Source: a virus. Taken from it: 64,000 nucleotides of DNA. Shown here piece by piece: positions 7,581 through 64,000 of this stretch (position 1 is the first letter of the stretch; each line of letters starts with the position of its first letter). The notes below the pieces were generated by a model that had not been told where the DNA came from, did not search any database, and saw nothing but the letters and a program-made list of their open reading frames with translations. Location of the stretch: the IMG/VR virus record IMGVR_UViG_3300045988_172839, positions 174,526 through 238,525 of that record. One strand, written 5' to 3'. A program made the translations under genes and the position numbers.

Positions 7581-7660
7581 GAAAATAAGATAAAGTTGTG
7601 AAAACGACTTGGAAATCTTGAAAAAAGGAAGAACCCAAGTTCTTCCTAATCTTAGATAAT

Positions 7661-7993
7661 TTAAAGAAGTGGATAATCCACAACAGTAGCGCCTTCTTCG
7701 GACGGATACCCTTTGACACCTCGGTATAAAGCCCTCTCAAGTCCATCTAAACCATGTGAAGAAGAACTAACCAACTGAGCTTGAGAACCCTCTAATAAAG
7801 TCTTCAAGTGGTAAATTGTTCCGTGACCTACGAAACGTTTCACAACAATCACAATGTCAAAGTCTTTCAACTTATCTGGGGCAAGTTCTGTATCGTTGTG
7901 TGAGCTAGAATCAATCACTTCAAGCGCTTCTGCTTTCTTCTCCGTTAATACAAGAGACCTAAAACGCTCTACTTGAGATTTGGGTAATCCCAA
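7661..7993 (-). CDS. hypothetical protein
   Basis: 110-aa ORF in array; no firm motif. Confidence 0.45.
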   Translation of the reverse strand: MGLPKSQVERFRSLVLTEKKAEALEVIDSSSHNDTELAPDKLKDFDIVIVVKRFVGHGTIYHLKTLLEGSQAQLVSSSSHGLDGLERALYRGVKGYPSEEGATVVDYPLL

Positions 7994-31177: not shown

Positions 31178-32497
31178 TTAATTTTGATAGATATAAGTTA
31201 CAAAACCTTCAGAGGTTGTTGTTGGGTTAAACCAACCACGGTGGTTGCCAATGTAACGTTTTCCACCAACATTTGATTCAGAAACCTGAATGCGTGTAGC
31301 TGATTCTACCGCAGTTACCACCGCAACGTGACCATAAGCACCGTCATTCCAACATGCAATCGCACCTACTTGTGGAGTTGAACCTGTTCTAAACCCCGCT
31401 GCAGCAGCACTTGTCGCCCACTGCGCTCCATTACCCCAATAATCTCCAGCCCAAGGTGCCAATGTTTTAGCTCCCCAAGTACACTCTCCCATTGGATAAC
31501 TTGAAGCGTCTGTATTGTATCTAGGACGACTTGTTGTGGTCACCGTAGGAGTTACTGTTGGTGTTGGGGTTGGAGTTGTTGCTTCCTCTTGAGGTTCTGA
31601 ACTTGGAGCTACTTCTTCTGAGGTAGTTGGGGCAGACGGAGTGGATACCGAAGAAACTTCTTGCGCTAATGAAGTATTTGCAGAGTTAGTTACTACTGCT
31701 TTTTCACTCTCTTTTTGAGCTAGGTAAGCCTTCTCTTCTTCCAAAGCTTTAGCTGCTTGACGTTCTGCTTCAGCTTTTTGCTCTACCAACTCAGCTTTCT
31801 TATCTTCTGCTTCAGTTTTTTCAACCTCTAAGTTCAACTTCGCTACTTCTAACTCAGCCTTGCGAGAATTAAGAGCTTGCGCGTCATCTTCTAACTTCTC
31901 TTTATTGGTAATAACCGTGTTAATCGCTTGGTTGTTCTCTTCTTGTTTCGCTAAAATGTCTTCTTTGTCACTCTTTTGTTGTGCTAACATCTTGTTACTT
32001 GCTTCAACAATTTGGTTCATAGAAGTAACCTTAGAAATAGCTTCAGAAATAGAATTTGAGTTAACAACTGCATTCACATAGTCTAAAACAGAACCACTAG
32101 TTTGCGCACTACGAGCTTGTTTTTCCAAAGACTCTTGACGAGACACAATGTTCTTAGATAAGTTGTTGATGTCTTTTTCTAAGTCTTTAGACACTGACTC
32201 CAAACGGTTAGTTTCAGCTTGTAAATTAGCTTGTTCAGTTTCTAAAGCAGTAACTTTACTTTGGACACTCTCTAACTGGGAACTTGCTTCTTTTTGTTTC
32301 TCTGTTAATTGCTCCACTTTCTGGTCTTGTTCTGCAATGGCAGAATTAGATACCCCAACTGGATTTGAGGTTGTTTGTGGCACATCAACTACCTCATGAG
32401 GACTTAACGCTCCTGCGCTGACTGTTTGAATGGTTGTTAAACCTTGACTTAATAATACTGTACTTAATAATAAAGTCGATAAAACTCTCTGTTTCAT
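31178..32497 (-). CDS. secreted PcsB-like coiled-coil / CHAP-domain peptidoglycan hydrolase
   Basis: signal-peptide-like [28 protein letters not shown], long coiled coil, Thr/Pro linker, C-terminal CHAP pattern (CTWGA ... GHVAVV ... ESN); ATG at 32497 preferred over the TTG at 32521. Confidence 0.75.
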
Positions 32498-32532
32498 ACT
32501 GGGAAAATCCTTTACTTTCAAAATATGAAATC

Positions 32533-51571: not shown

Positions 51572-53020
51572 TTAATTAAAATATTCTTTACCTACAGATT
51601 TTAGGTCTGTAGTTAGTTGCGACATTGTAAGCTCTTGATTGCGCAAAAACGTATCAAAGTCAGACTTACAACCATCAATGTCTACTGTTACTCCATCTAA
51701 ACCTACATGCTGTAACAGAAAGGCTGAATATAAGTCACGTTGAACTAAGTCATCACCAATCAGTTTTGAACGTGTACCTAATGAAACTTTGTTGTACTCT
51801 TCAGTTAAGTGGTTTAACTGGGAAGCCTTTACTTCTCTTGTATTTGCAAGAATAAATGTTTTACCTTGGTACATGGTTTTATAACGAATCTGTTCAATCA
51901 ACATAGACGGTGCTTTGTGTAAAAGAGTTTTACCAAAGCGTTTCTTAGACTGGTATTTACCTGTCTTTTCACTTACTTTCGTTTCCTTTGTACGAGCTTG
52001 TAAACCTTTAAAGGACATTTGCTCTACTACGAAAGTTGAACCCATACGCACAACTCTGTTAGCTAAAGTTTTATGAGCCAACTTACGTTGCTCCGCTGCT
52101 TTACGATGTAACTCACTAAGTTCTGCTTTTGTCTTCAGATACTCATTAGAATCTACCCAAGTTTGGCGCACACCCTTTTTAATAGTACCATCTGCATTGT
52201 ACTTGTGAGGATTGTTAGCCCTACGTTGACGATCAAGTTTGCGACTTAAACGTATAAGTTCTTGTTGATCTAAGTCAACTCCCCTTGCTAGTTCCTCTAA
52301 CTCAGTCTGATAATAAGAGGATACCGCAATCGTAGATGTACCAATATCAATTCCCACAGAACCTTCAAGTTCGGAAGTGTATTTAGTTGGGAGTGTTCCC
52401 TCAAAAATAGACTGTACATAGTAGTTCCACTCCCCAAACTCAAATCTGCGAACTAAACGGTTGTACTTCAAAGTATTACGTAAAACTTCTTCTTCAAAAA
52501 CATCGTTTTCGTTACGAATGGTACATGAAACTTTCTTTTTGCGAGTTGAGATAGTGAAAACATTACCTTTTATACTAACTCCTGTAGTTCCGCTACTCTC
52601 AAAGGAAGTCAAATTACCTCTAAGATTCACTTTCTCAGCACCTTTAGCAAACATCACTTTACTAAATGCACCCCATGCTCTAAAACCTAACATATAAGCA
52701 ACCTTAGAAGGAATATAATCACTGTAATTACGAGCATTACGGTAGTCATTTGCAAACTTACCTGCTGTGAACTTACCTACTAAGTCATACTTAGTACCAA
52801 GATCTTTCAAAATTGCATTACGCTCTTTTCCTTTAGGGAACTTATAGGCTTTCTTATAAAGGGGATCTTTCTTCATCTTAGAGTAACGTTTTAACAACGC
52901 AATTAAAGTCTTCTTGTAAATATCGTCTGCCATACGGAAACGCTTTGCAAACTGCTCTTTGTGAGACTTGTTTGCATTTAATTTACGAGTATAGACAAAT
53001 AGTTGTTTACCTTTCTCCAT
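51572..53020 (-). CDS. tnpB: TnpB-like RuvC-fold protein (IS200/IS605 OrfB family) lacking the zinc-ribbon cysteines
   Basis: GIDIGTSTIAVS (RuvC-I D), FVVEQMSFKGLQ (RuvC-II E), LVQRDLYSAFLL (RuvC-III D); the usual TSQxCxxCG position reads ASQLNHLTEEYN; strong AAAGGAGG RBS. Confidence 0.75.
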   Translation of the reverse strand: MEKGKQLFVYTRKLNANKSHKEQFAKRFRMADDIYKKTLIALLKRYSKMKKDPLYKKAYKFPKGKERNAILKDLGTKYDLVGKFTAGKFANDYRNARNYSDYIPSKVAYMLGFRAWGAFSKVMFAKGAEKVNLRGNLTSFESSGTTGVSIKGNVFTISTRKKKVSCTIRNENDVFEEEVLRNTLKYNRLVRRFEFGEWNYYVQSIFEGTLPTKYTSELEGSVGIDIGTSTIAVSSYYQTELEELARGVDLDQQELIRLSRKLDRQRRANNPHKYNADGTIKKGVRQTWVDSNEYLKTKAELSELHRKAAEQRKLAHKTLANRVVRMGSTFVVEQMSFKGLQARTKETKVSEKTGKYQSKKRFGKTLLHKAPSMLIEQIRYKTMYQGKTFILANTREVKASQLNHLTEEYNKVSLGTRSKLIGDDLVQRDLYSAFLLQHVGLDGVTVDIDGCKSDFDTFLRNQELTMSQLTTDLKSVGKEYFN

Positions 53021-57168: not shown

Positions 57169-57972
57169 TTAGTTCTTCTGAAAAACACAAACCATTTTCG
57201 TATCAAAAGGAACTAAGTCTAGCTCAAAGTAATTCTGTAAATAAGCTAAATAACTCTGATCCTTATATCTATGAATACCTTGCAACTGCAAACAATCTTT
57301 CCAAGGATACGCAATCCACTTTATGAAGGCATTTGTAACATTATATTGCTCTTTTGACTCTCGACTCAAAGACTTCAAACCCCAAACTGTATGAAAAATA
57401 ATCTCATAAGCATTTTTAACAGTAGTTACAATAGAACCGTCTTCTTTTGTCTCAACAGTATCAATAATCGAGTTTTTCTGAAGTTCTTTAATCCAAGTAT
57501 GTATTTCTATCTCACTTTGTTTTGAAACAGGTCGGAGCGTAAATGTCTCAGATACCAAATCTGGGTTAGCCCAATCTCGAATAACTAGAGAACCACCTGT
57601 TTTTAAACTATTTACAATCATGGATATGGTTTCTGTACGTTCTTGACGAGTTAAATAACTCATAATTTCGTGGAAAACACTAGAGAGATAAATTATATCA
57701 AATTGAAGTTCCCCTTTAAGTAACTCTTGTTTAGTTACCACATTTACACCCATACGAGATAAAGTAGTTTGCACAGTCGGAGAAATATCATAAGAATAGT
57801 AATTAGTACCTGTAGAAACTACATTAGCTATAAACTCATAAGAAATACCAGAACCAAAATCCAAAAGTGTAACCCCCTCTCCAAGAAATGGCTCAACTAC
57901 CTTAAATTTAGACTCAGCAGTTTGGTTCATTCTTTGAATATAGCTATTATTATCACTTAAATAGTTATCCAT
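57169..57972 (-). CDS. class I SAM-dependent methyltransferase
   Basis: VTLLDFGSGISYEF (motif I), FDIIYLSSVFHEI, LKTGGSLVIRDW. Confidence 0.65.
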   Translation of the reverse strand: MDNYLSDNNSYIQRMNQTAESKFKVVEPFLGEGVTLLDFGSGISYEFIANVVSTGTNYYSYDISPTVQTTLSRMGVNVVTKQELLKGELQFDIIYLSSVFHEIMSYLTRQERTETISMIVNSLKTGGSLVIRDWANPDLVSETFTLRPVSKQSEIEIHTWIKELQKNSIIDTVETKEDGSIVTTVKNAYEIIFHTVWGLKSLSRESKEQYNVTNAFIKWIAYPWKDCLQLQGIHRYKDQSYLAYLQNYFELDLVPFDTKMVCVFQKN

Positions 57973-60577: not shown

Positions 60578-60823
60578 TTACAATACTTCACTTGAAGGTT
60601 CATATTCTTTTAAAAGTTCATCTAAATCATAGTTTGGAATATCTAACTGATCAGACTTATTTCTTAAAATAATCTTCCCATCTTCAAAAATAAACTCTAC
60701 CTCATTACCTTCAGACAAATTTAAGTTTTCTAAAACTGTAGTTGGTAGAAGGATACCCTTACTGTTTCCCCATTTAGTAACCTTTTTAGTTCCTAAACTG
60801 CATCGATAATGTTCTTTAACCAT
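60578..60823 (-). CDS. AbrB/MazE/SpoVT-family DNA-binding (antitoxin-like) protein
   Basis: VTKWGNSKGILLPTTVLENLNLSEGNEVEF is the swapped-hairpin barrel signature. Confidence 0.65.
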   Translation of the reverse strand: MVKEHYRCSLGTKKVTKWGNSKGILLPTTVLENLNLSEGNEVEFIFEDGKIILRNKSDQLDIPNYDLDELLKEYEPSSEVL

Positions 60824-61188: not shown

Positions 61189-61195
61189 TAGTTTA

Positions 61196-61562
61196 TGGAG
61201 CCGGTGGGAGTCGAACCCACGTCCAAACGACCTTTCCAGCTAACCTTACTGCGCACTGCTACGTTTTAACATTCTACTTTTAGGAAACGCACAAAGCTAA
61301 AAGTTATATCTCTCTTTAACAAACTAAGTTGAGAAATCTTAGTTGCGAGTACCGATGTTTATAGCAACTAAAAGATACCGGTACTTATCTTAGTCGCTCG
61401 TCTATTCGACTTTTTACTTGTGTTGAGTGACAACTAAGCCGAAGCTTAGGCAACCATTTCAACTGGTGCATTGTTATTTGCAGTTATGTTTAGGTTGGTG
61501 ATTACGTCACCACTCGGTACGAGGTTAAAAGGTACAATCGCCTGTCGAATCCAAGCGACCCC
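61196..61562 (-). ncRNA. ssrA: tmRNA (ssrA)
   Basis: 5' GGGGTCGCTTGGATTCGACAGG and 3' GTGGGTTCGACTCCCACCGGCTCCA form a tRNA-Ala-like acceptor with a G3.U pair and a T-arm; internal ORF ..GCA AAT AAC AAT GCA CCA GTT GAA ATG GTT GCC TAA followed by a UUCG-capped helix; about 367 nt. Confidence 0.85.
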
Positions 61563-63467: not shown

Positions 63468-63542
63468 TCGGAATTGCAGGATTCGAACCTACGACCCCGT
63501 GTTCCCAAAACACGTGCGCTAACCAAACTGCGCTAAATTCCG
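63468..63542 (-). tRNA. tRNA-Pro (anticodon TGG)
   Basis: acceptor CGGAATT/AATTCCG, D GCGC/GCGC, anticodon arm CGTGT-TTTGGGA-ACACG, T-arm GTAGG-TTCGAAT-CCTGC. Confidence 0.9.
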
Positions 63543-63558
63543 ATAATATAAAAGGTAA

Positions 63559-63697
63559 TGAGGATAGAGGGAATTGAACCCTCGGTCATAAGCAGTCGCT
63601 GCCTTACCCCTTGGCTATACAACGACCTAGTCGTCGTAAAAGGATTCGAACCCGTGGTCTACGGTCTCTTATTGCCTTACCACTTGGCTATATCCTC
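63559..63697 (-). other. composite nested tRNA-like element (a permuted tRNA-like module inside the anticodon stem of another)
   Basis: outer 7-bp stem GAGGATA/TATCCTC; two D-arms (GCC-AAGTGGTAA-GGC, GCC-AAGGGGTAA-GGC); two T-arms (TTCGAAT, TTCAATT); inner hairpin TACGACG-ACTAGGT-CGTTGTA; ATAAG/CTTAT helix at the anticodon-stem position. Confidence 0.6.
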
Positions 63698-63789
63698 GAT
63701 AATTAAAATACGAAGAGCAAGAGATTTGCTCTAAGAACTTCTGCAACCCTCTTTCAAGCATTGCACGCCGTTGTGGCACAAAGACAAAT

Positions 63790-63891
63790 ACCACCGCAAG
63801 GATTCGAACAGTTTTCAAAGAAAACTCCGCTGATCTACCGGCTCATCTATGTAAGTCATGACTCAAACATAAGCACCATGCTATCGGTGGT
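63790..63891 (-). pseudogene. tRNA-derived element (decayed tRNA-Lys-like core closed by a new 7-bp terminal stem)
   Basis: ACCACCG/CGGTGGT terminal stem; the interior GAGCCGGTAGATCAGCGGAG..TTTTCTTTGAAAAC..TTCGAATCC resembles tRNA-Lys(TTT) but lacks a T-stem and its own acceptor. Confidence 0.3.
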
Positions 63892-63932
63892 AATCAGGAT
63901 TTAAACGTTTAAACTTCCACTTCGCAATGGAA

Positions 63933-64000
63933 CTCCACCAACTGGGTTCGAACCAGTGACATCATGATTAACAGTCATGCGCTCTACCAACTGAGCTATG
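63933..64000 (-). tRNA. tRNA-Asn (anticodon GTT), 5' end truncated by the window edge
   Basis: D GCTC/GAGC, anticodon arm CATGA-CTGTTAA-TCATG, T-arm ACTGG-TTCGAAC-CCAGT, 3' acceptor TGGTGGA. Confidence 0.8.

Follow-up and report, generated by a model that had tools for sequence, protein, structure and literature searches.

Transfer RNA (tRNA) mimicry recurs in nature, with transfer-messenger RNA (tmRNA), Y RNAs, viral tRNA-like structures and mascRNA as examples, and to our knowledge the known natural tRNA mimics each present one tRNA-like body. Here we describe an element that presents two. It is an RNA gene of 139 nucleotides (nt) on the minus strand at 63559..63697 of a 64,000-nt stretch of viral DNA (IMG/VR record IMGVR_UViG_3300045988_172839, positions 174,526 to 238,525; hereafter the window), and in its RNA a complete tRNA body is nested in the anticodon arm of another, which is a new architecture. 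We found no comparable architecture in the full-text literature on fused, twin, permuted or decoy tRNA-like RNAs in phages, and no family of Rfam 15 covers the element. An original prediction, made from the letters of the window, had described it as a permuted tRNA-like module nested inside the anticodon stem of another such module.

Non-decoding tRNA mimics are already known as a kind, from the permuted modules of YrlA RNAs and from the odd stable RNAs in the tRNA cluster of phage T4. YrlA provides a precedent for a closed, permuted tRNA-like module that serves as a protein-binding domain (PMC4201824; bioRxiv 10.1101/312249). YrlA and the element, both of them non-decoding tRNA mimics, have in common the permuted order, the tRNA tertiary nucleotides, the absence of a free CCA from the module and, as its link to the rest of the RNA, an anticodon-like stem that is kinked or interrupted. 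They differ in what carries the module, which in YrlA is a Ro60/Rsr-binding helix with a GNCGAA motif and in the element is a second tRNA body, itself complete, whose acceptor end is open. YrlA domains have been reported from bacteria and from 22 phages (PMC4201824), so the claim that a permuted unit has no phage or bacterial precedent fails for the inner module; for the nesting of such a unit in a second tRNA it stands, since no example was found. The species 1 (rnaC) and species 2 (rnaD) RNAs of T4 are small stable RNAs that lie, like the element, within a phage tRNA cluster, and rnaC is annotated as 139 nt long with a 3' T-arm and tRNA-like termini. Homology to rnaC was rejected, as this RNA has one T-arm, no D-arms, no crosswise pairing, a long irregular hairpin and no sequence similarity to the element, and the equal length is a coincidence.

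Permuted tRNA genes are known from Cyanidioschyzon and split tRNA genes from Nanoarchaeum. In the genes of C. merolae and N. equitans the 3' half lies upstream and the halves are joined through the acceptor termini, as in the inner module of the element. These genes give rise to normal decoding tRNAs, through a bulge-helix-bulge and ligation or through annealing in trans, whereas the linker of the element is a covarying helix and the whole module is embedded in a second tRNA. The inner module shares with a permuted gene the placement of its 3' half upstream of its 5' half and lacks the intact anticodon loop and free acceptor termini of such a gene. In tRNAs with anticodon-loop introns (bacterial group I, archaeal bulge-helix-bulge) the cloverleaf is interrupted where it is in the element; unlike these tRNAs, the element leaves no conserved anticodon loop once its insert is removed. 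The tRNA-like domain of tmRNA, which also occurs in two-piece permuted form, is an RNase P-processed tRNA mimic encoded in the same array as the element. However, the single tRNA-like domain of tmRNA lacks a true D-arm and anticodon stem, and tmRNA further has a messenger-RNA-like reading frame, pseudoknots and a G3.U70 pair for alanine identity; the element has none of these apart from G3.U70 in one lineage (L002). A tmRNA identity for the element itself was rejected, as the match was confined to 18 nt of a T-arm (16 bits) and the real tmRNA lies at 61193-61562.

A conserved RNA with two nested tRNA bodies

Neither ARAGORN with default settings nor Rfam 15 at its gathering threshold made any call between the tRNA-Pro gene at 63468-63542 and the truncated tRNA gene at 63933-64000 (tRNA-Asn in syntenic relatives), the two tRNA genes that flank the element. 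The minus-strand letters of 63697..63559 agree exactly with those quoted in the original prediction, which had noted that two consecutive tRNAs read from them would lack matching acceptor stems and local anticodon arms and that the strands pair crosswise instead. Both statements were borne out in the window copy, where the local acceptor pairings amount to 2/7 and 4/7, as against 7/7 pairs for the crosswise outer acceptor (GAGGATA/TATCCTC) and 5/5 for ATAAG/CTTAT. Folding with RNAfold, proposed as a check, gave −50 kcal/mol (z = −3.86), with none of 200 shuffles folding as well, and retained the outer acceptor stem, the inner hairpin and the second T-arm.

An exact-sequence search of viral contigs for the inner hairpin returned no matches, and degenerate patterns of the architecture were therefore needed. 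We used degenerate DNA patterns for the layout D-arm, short gap, T-loop, gap, D-arm, short gap, T-loop, and found the element in 15 IMG/VR contigs of 12–278 kb as well as in metagenome contigs, long-read assemblies included, that are mostly human-associated by record name or sample identifier. A protein-anchored search identified the syntenic tRNA/tmRNA cluster in eight related contigs. The family amounts to 28 distinct sequence variants at ~52 loci, with a narrow range of lengths (139–142 nt), and its carriers are related large uncultured phages of the human microbiome. A very loose pattern (two T-loops, TAG, short spacing) found, among the matches listed, mostly ordinary tandem tRNAs, and these loci were reused as a background set. 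Under a covariance model (R1) the members scored 129–159 bits, with the window copy at 149.8 bits over model positions 1–140, while any tRNA or tandem pair in the 1.8 Mb of fetched phage DNA scored at most 54 bits; the tRNA-Gln of the window was among the top non-members at 52.9 bits. The family is discrete, and the model parts its members from everything else in the 1.8 Mb.

We found that RNAalifold, given the alignment alone, returned the nested topology, with compensatory double changes in 25 of 44 pairs. In an explicit nested model, 98.3% of 1,133 cells were in standard pairs and 24 of 41 pairs had double-sided changes. When this model was subjected to a shuffle test (500 shuffles), the observed value was reached by 0/500 on four of five measures and by 1/500 on the fifth, and when the 3' partners were slid by 1–3 columns only 40–51% of cells paired, with 3–7 double-sided pairs. 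The outer acceptor illustrates the extent of the changes, with GAGGATA/TATCCTC, GAGGGTA/TACCCTC, TGGGGTA/TACCTCG, TGTGGCT/AGCCACG and AAAGGTA/TACCTTT among its variants, and covariation extends to the inner hairpin, to both T-stems and to the anticodon-like stems. By comparison, the local acceptor stems of a tandem-tRNA model pair in 42% and 57% of cells, which is the chance level, versus 99% crosswise, and the mean fold energy is −7.7 kcal/mol for the tandem and −32.8 kcal/mol for the nested structure. The original prediction had asked for covariation in the three long-range helices and had named loss of crosswise complementarity among homologues as grounds for giving it up; on the 28-variant alignment all three helices covary and the complementarity is kept.

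Tertiary contacts point the same way. The Levitt pair 15:48 changed from G:C to A:U three times, and its partner was always found crosswise: in L042 the pair joins D-loop 1 to variable loop 2, and in L025 and L028 the A15 of D-loop 2 faces U48 of variable loop 1. Under the tandem reading, exactly these positions would be A:C mismatches. Furthermore, 110 of 1,114 pairs of the nested model are G.U, so the selected molecule is the RNA read from the tRNA strand. A background scan of 605 T-loop pairs in the 1.8 Mb found 480 that were plainly tandem and none outside the family that was convincingly nested. Taken together, these results demonstrated that the element is a conserved, structurally selected RNA with a nested double-tRNA fold, and we regard the nested double-tRNA structure of the RNA as close to certain.

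The outer module has a 7-base-pair (bp) acceptor stem, U8-A9, a 3-bp D-stem with a 9-nt loop, A26 and a 5-bp anticodon stem, followed on the 3' side by a 4-nt variable loop, a T-arm and a discriminator A. The 5' end of the RNA is at 63697, where the acceptor strand GAGGATA (63691..63697) pairs in 7/7 positions with UAUCCUC (63560..63566); the latter precedes the discriminator A at 63559 (present in 27/28 variants), which is followed by U. Across the alignment this helix is paired in 99% of cells and has double-sided compensatory changes in 6 of 7 pairs. D-arm 1 (GCC AAGUGGUAA GGC, 63674..63688) is tRNA-Gln-like, its A14, G19 and A21 are invariant and its G18 is present in 27/28 variants, and its G15 is the Levitt partner of C48 in variable loop 2. 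T-arm 2 (GAGGG UUCAAUU CCCUC, 63567..63583) belongs to this module and is 97.1% paired, with 3 double-sided pairs. The claim of a complete outer cloverleaf, with an anticodon loop replaced by a unit of T-arm, closed acceptor hairpin and D-arm, was upheld by RNAalifold, by covariation and by the Levitt pair.

From the outer module a central rod leads inward. The outer anticodon stem is followed by a 1-nt bulge and then by an invariant A-U pair and a G-C pair, so that the 5' strand with its 2-bp extension (AUAAG-AG, 63666..63672) faces the 3' strand with extension and bulge (CU-G-CUUAU, 63588..63595). RNAalifold predicts this helix independently, and it is supported by covariation and conservation, with 98.5% of cells paired and 3 pairs with double-sided changes. 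Onward, a small internal loop gives way to a helix of 3–6 bp with strong covariation (GC, AU, UA and UG), which is the inner module's own anticodon stem. It measures 3 bp in the window copy, where the 3'-side strand CGU (63661..63663) pairs with the 5'-side strand GCG (63597..63599), and 4–6 bp in relatives. RNAalifold recovers it, and in the alignment (columns 36–39 against 101–104) 3 of 4 pairs have double-sided changes. The original prediction was therefore right about the 5 bp of ATAAG/CTTAT but incomplete, having missed both the A-U and G-C extension and the inner anticodon stem.

The inner module runs in the order 4–5-nt variable loop, T-arm, a closed 8–9-bp hairpin that replaces the acceptor, U8-A9, D-arm and N26. 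T-arm 1 (ACGGG UUCGAAU CCUUU, 63639..63655) is a covarying helix, 97.9% paired (AAGGG/CCCUU, GGAGG/CCUCU, GGUGG/CCACC); the window copy has one C.U mismatch where the family consensus pairs fully. The closed hairpin (UACGACGAC UAG GUCGUUGUA, 63618..63638) is 98.9% paired with 6 of 7 pairs double-sided. Such a hairpin had been predicted and does exist, but with other dimensions, being 9 bp with a 3-nt loop in the window rather than 7 bp with a 7-nt loop; both pairs past the canonical seven (columns 68–74 and 69–73) covary across the family, and the loop is 3–5 nt. D-arm 2 (GCC AAGGGGUAA GGC, 63601..63615) is again tRNA-Gln-like, with G15 as the Levitt partner of C48 in variable loop 1. Neither half has a local anticodon arm, and the element is without an anticodon loop.

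We computed sequence conservation on 11 divergent representatives. It was highest in the elbows (D-arms and T-loops, 0.84–0.91), followed by the outer anticodon stem with its extension (0.79), the outer acceptor stem (0.68), the inner hairpin (0.57) and the inner anticodon stem (0.47). The nucleotides that make the tertiary contacts of the L shape (U8, A14, R15:Y48, G18, G19, T54, Psi55, C56 and A58) are invariant in both modules, except that G18 has become A once in module 1. In overall shape the RNA thus consists of a pair of L-shaped tRNA bodies that share a central rod; each contributes an elbow, and one of the ends is open and the other closed.

Genomic setting of the element

The element always lies within a tRNA/tmRNA array and on the tRNA strand. 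In the lineage of the window it sits between a conserved 105-nt odd tRNA-like RNA and tRNA-Pro, 13–15 nt upstream of the latter, while in divergent lineages it follows the tmRNA gene (0.1–1.5 kb downstream) and has other neighbours. In two relatives (L021 and L022) the element and its 16-nt spacer are cleanly absent and the conserved flank runs directly into tRNA-Pro, and in two others (L017 and L018) both the element and tRNA-Pro are absent. This clean presence and absence, together with the varied neighbours, indicates that the element acts as a discrete accessory gene. A T follows the discriminator directly in 28/28 variants and no CCA is encoded, as in all nine complete tRNA genes of the window. 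No dedicated promoter for the element was evident, and neither Rsr/TROVE nor other tRNA-enzyme genes were found beside it among the window open reading frames (ORFs) of at least 400 amino acids, the ORFs of the cluster, or the 8–12 kb upstream in L016 and L004.

Several other genes of the array were recognised. The tmRNA (61193-61562, minus strand) scores 108 bits to RF00023 and encodes the tag peptide ANNNAPVEMVA. Its gene is conserved throughout the clade, where the tags vary and end in MAA or MVA. Inside the tRNA cluster, an ORF of 267 amino acids (57169-57972, minus strand) encodes an S-adenosylmethionine-dependent methyltransferase (PF13489, E = 9e-8) with a weak PHROG match to ‘tRNA methyltransferase’, and an ORF of 81 amino acids (60578-60823, minus strand) resembles MazE/AbrB-type antitoxins (PF04014, E = 1.4e-10) and may, from this likeness, be an anti-toxin or anti-defence gene. 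The methyltransferase and the MazE-like ORF were considered as partners of the element and rejected, as neither is linked to it across lineages. Just downstream of the tRNA region, an IS605 OrfB/TnpB-type transposase-like ORF of 482 amino acids is found at 51572-53020 on the minus strand (phrog_506, E = 1.3e-33; PF01385 below threshold).

Other odd tRNA-like RNAs were seen in the window and in related phages. The 105-nt neighbour is a second unannotated tRNA-like RNA of 105–108 nt (63788-63892, minus strand), ~90 nt upstream of the element. Its ends form a 7-bp stem (ACCACCG/CGGTGGT) with an A after it, and it has a GTTCGAATCC T-loop motif that lacks an adjacent T-stem. It contains a hairpin, TATGT and ACATA around a 14-nt loop, that covaries to TATTG/CAATA, and a variable hairpin that changes its letters and stays paired. 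We counted 17 variants of this RNA in the fetched loci, and it is present also in relatives that do not carry the nested element. In one such relative, L017, a long tRNA-like sequence at 7583-7690 on the plus strand (GAGGTA...TATACCTCA), with the T-arm GGTGG TTCGATT CCACT and a ~50-nt insert, was not called by ARAGORN. A 19.7-kb human-gut phage contig (L024, identical to L057) has an adjacent pair of tRNA-like sequences at 1265-1421 on the plus strand, with local acceptors and truncated or odd anticodon arms; this arrangement is distinct from the nested family, and R1 gives it 33 bits, on one half only. In addition, ARAGORN reports tRNAs with abnormal anticodon loops in divergent phages that bear the element (L029, 5049-5122, and L042, 8218-8290, plus strand), with a 4-nt ‘tata’ and a 2-nt ‘aa’ anticodon.

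In an annotated phage collection, no DNA came close to that of the window, and when window proteins were compared with annotated phages one had no match and another had only distant matches in Firmicute phages. All ORFs of at least 150 amino acids in the window lie on the minus strand, and the guanine-plus-cytosine content is ~36%. A scan of contigs in a genome collection gave as its sole match a phage contig binned into an uncultured Mogibacterium metagenome-assembled genome, plus one false positive. The few recognisable window proteins point to a Firmicute phage, to judge from their sequence matches. A 447-amino-acid peptidoglycan hydrolase of PcsB-type coiled-coil plus CHAP composition is encoded at 31178-32521 on the minus strand, and it hints at a streptococcal or other Firmicute host.

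Nature of the RNA and rival explanations

The element cannot decode, as the residues that would form an anticodon loop differ between lineages and pair as a helix. It seems fairly probable to us that it is a gene for a non-decoding structured RNA of ~140 nt, with two tRNA-Gln-derived bodies in one chain, which would act as a bivalent mimic of the tRNA body. Among the three functions that the original prediction had offered, a two-elbow structural RNA fits best; a processed pair of tRNAs is unlikely, since an anticodon loop is missing from both modules and base pairing takes up the position where the inner module would have its discriminator. A specific aminoacylation identity is also unlikely, given that the sequence of the acceptor stem is not conserved. 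Pair 1–72 is G-C, U.G or A-U across the variants, so that a GatCAB/tRNA-Gln identity resting on U1-A72 was rejected, and an alanine identity was likewise rejected because its G3.U70 is restricted to the L002 lineage (5/28 variants) and is no feature of the family.

Tandem tRNAs are common in the array, and each half of the element is weakly tRNA-like, the first half giving a permissive Rfam tRNA match of 21.8 bits (threshold 29) at 63637-63692. It could therefore be asked whether the locus is a run of degenerate tandem tRNAs or pseudogenes, an assembly or recombination artefact with chance complementarity, or a site that acts at the level of DNA (att). This reading is refuted, with next to no probability left to it: its local acceptors pair at the chance level, the element comes from independent assemblies at ~52 loci, long reads among them, the compensatory changes and the 110 G.U pairs reflect selection on an RNA fold, and no convincing nested T-loop pair exists outside the family in the 1.8 Mb. 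A decoding product from an intron-containing, permuted or split tRNA gene, in the form of one or two tRNAs, is suggested by ARAGORN with introns allowed, which reads c[63559,63697] as the outer cloverleaf plus a 68-nt ‘intron’ after position 37 and calls it tRNA-Gly(acc); permuted and split genes do exist, in the organisms named above. However, the putative anticodon loop varies (AGACCGU, AGAUUAG, AGACUGU, AGAACUG and others), position 33 is G and not U, and the 3' part of the loop belongs to a covarying helix whose other strand lies on the far side of the insert. The insert, at 68–75 nt, falls short of the ~200 nt or more required by a group I intron, and inspection of the RNAalifold helices found no bulge-helix-bulge motif. 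Moreover, undoing the permutation of the inner module would yield no anticodon loop whatever, and the insert is itself under strong structural selection with its own tRNA-like fold. We consider the decoding reading largely refuted and very improbable.

The inner hairpin raises the question of whether the RNA stays in one piece. RNase P might also cut in the hairpin loop, with trimming of the 3' end and CCA addition, to leave two chains of ~70 nt that are held by the three crosswise helices and carry two CCA ends. The inner T-stem and the first 7 bp of the hairpin do add up to the 12-bp stack measured by RNase P, the seventh pair is followed by a discriminator-like A in 22/28 variants, and in Mycobacterium smegmatis a YrlA RNA with a 7-bp acceptor-like stem is cut by RNase P and given CCA in vivo (PMC4201824). 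But the hairpin continues for 1–2 covarying bp (AU/GC/UA, then CG/AU) to a loop of 3–5 nt, so that pairing covers both the −1 base and the would-be discriminator, and cleavage of YrlA was not seen where the stem differs from exactly 7 bp (PMC4201824). No lineage has CCA in the loop. We think such a split unlikely. YrlA also suggests another reading, in which the element is a Y RNA whose inner module is an effector-binding domain, tethering a phage or host Ro60/Rsr protein to some other factor. The inner module has the YrlA order of T-arm, closed acceptor-like stem-loop and D-arm, and a permissive Rfam search matches YrlA exactly over it (63593-63663), although at 14.6 bits and E = 8.5 this match is far below the gathering threshold of 69. 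On reading the sequence of the element we did not find the Ro-binding motif GNCGAA(N0-1)G, and its termini form an acceptor stem on a complete second tRNA body instead of a Ro-binding helix. YrlA genes have been reported within 4 kb of rsr (PMC4201824), and no TROVE match was found in the window ORFs, near the cluster or in the upstream regions given above, which makes a YrlA-type Y RNA quite improbable.

Returning to the bivalent tRNA-body mimic, a possible mechanism can be outlined. The element would be transcribed together with the tRNA/tmRNA array of the phage, and its release from the transcript would follow the route of the neighbouring tRNAs, with RNase P making the outer 5' end and RNase Z, together with CCA addition, the outer 3' end, through the outer acceptor/T-arm helix. 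The two sequence-invariant elbows and the conserved central helix might then bind a factor that recognises the tRNA shape, and in this way the RNA could either divert a host protein that binds or targets tRNAs, acting as its decoy or sponge, or work as an adaptor in the manner of Y RNAs. We put this decoy or adaptor mechanism forward tentatively. A more specific version, in which the element would belong to a new class of phage effector RNA, seems somewhat unlikely: that a rigid ‘double tRNA’ with elbows at a fixed helical distance fills two tRNA-binding sites at once, and so neutralises or redirects its target during infection. Candidate targets of such a two-site effector RNA could include the ribosome, an enzyme of tRNA processing or modification, or a host defence nuclease or toxin that is dimeric and attacks tRNAs, and a sub-variant could be the heterodimer with two CCA ends left by an RNase P split.

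Some observations weigh against this reading of the element as a functional mimic and against the structural evidence behind it. All members come from one clade of phages, and their covariation therefore partly reflects shared ancestry, a kinship for which the slid-register control allows. The invariance of D-arm 2 and of both T-loops is partly ascertainment, as these parts were set by the search patterns, which left D-arm 1, all stems and the central helix unconstrained. The element is dispensable in the four close relatives that lack it, and no partner gene was found consistently adjacent to it across lineages. A weak terminator-like hairpin lies 17 nt upstream and is conserved in relatives with or without the element. 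Finally, processing, stability and CCA addition are deduced solely from the likeness of the element to neighbouring tRNA genes, whose ends are indistinguishable from its own.

The origin of the element is probably to be sought in tandem tRNA-Gln genes. Two identical tRNA copies in tandem can pair either locally or crosswise, and such a pair may have become locked into the domain-swapped fold once both anticodon loops had been trimmed. The original prediction had pointed to a resemblance of both D-arms to the tRNA-Gln of the phage, and indeed the 5' halves are identical to it at 21/25 and 20/25 positions, compared with at most 14/25 for other tRNAs. Each half is also shortened, by 5–6 nt relative to a tRNA, in the part from D-arm to T-loop. 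An origin in tandem tRNA-Gln genes would explain both the shortened halves and the likeness of the two to tRNA-Gln.

Implications for phage tRNA arrays

With two complete tRNA bodies per chain, joined anticodon-stem to anticodon-stem in the topology of a domain-swapped tandem dimer, the family would be the first of its kind among natural RNAs, and it suggests a simple route by which tandem tRNA genes can become a new structured RNA. As a natural two-elbow scaffold of fixed geometry, it is of interest for structural biology and for RNA engineering. In addition, phage tRNA arrays conceal conserved genes that are not tRNAs and that standard annotators skip, with at least two adjoining in this window. 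Many anti-phage defences target tRNAs, and the element offers a testable candidate for a phage RNA that manipulates the tRNA-recognising machinery of the host.

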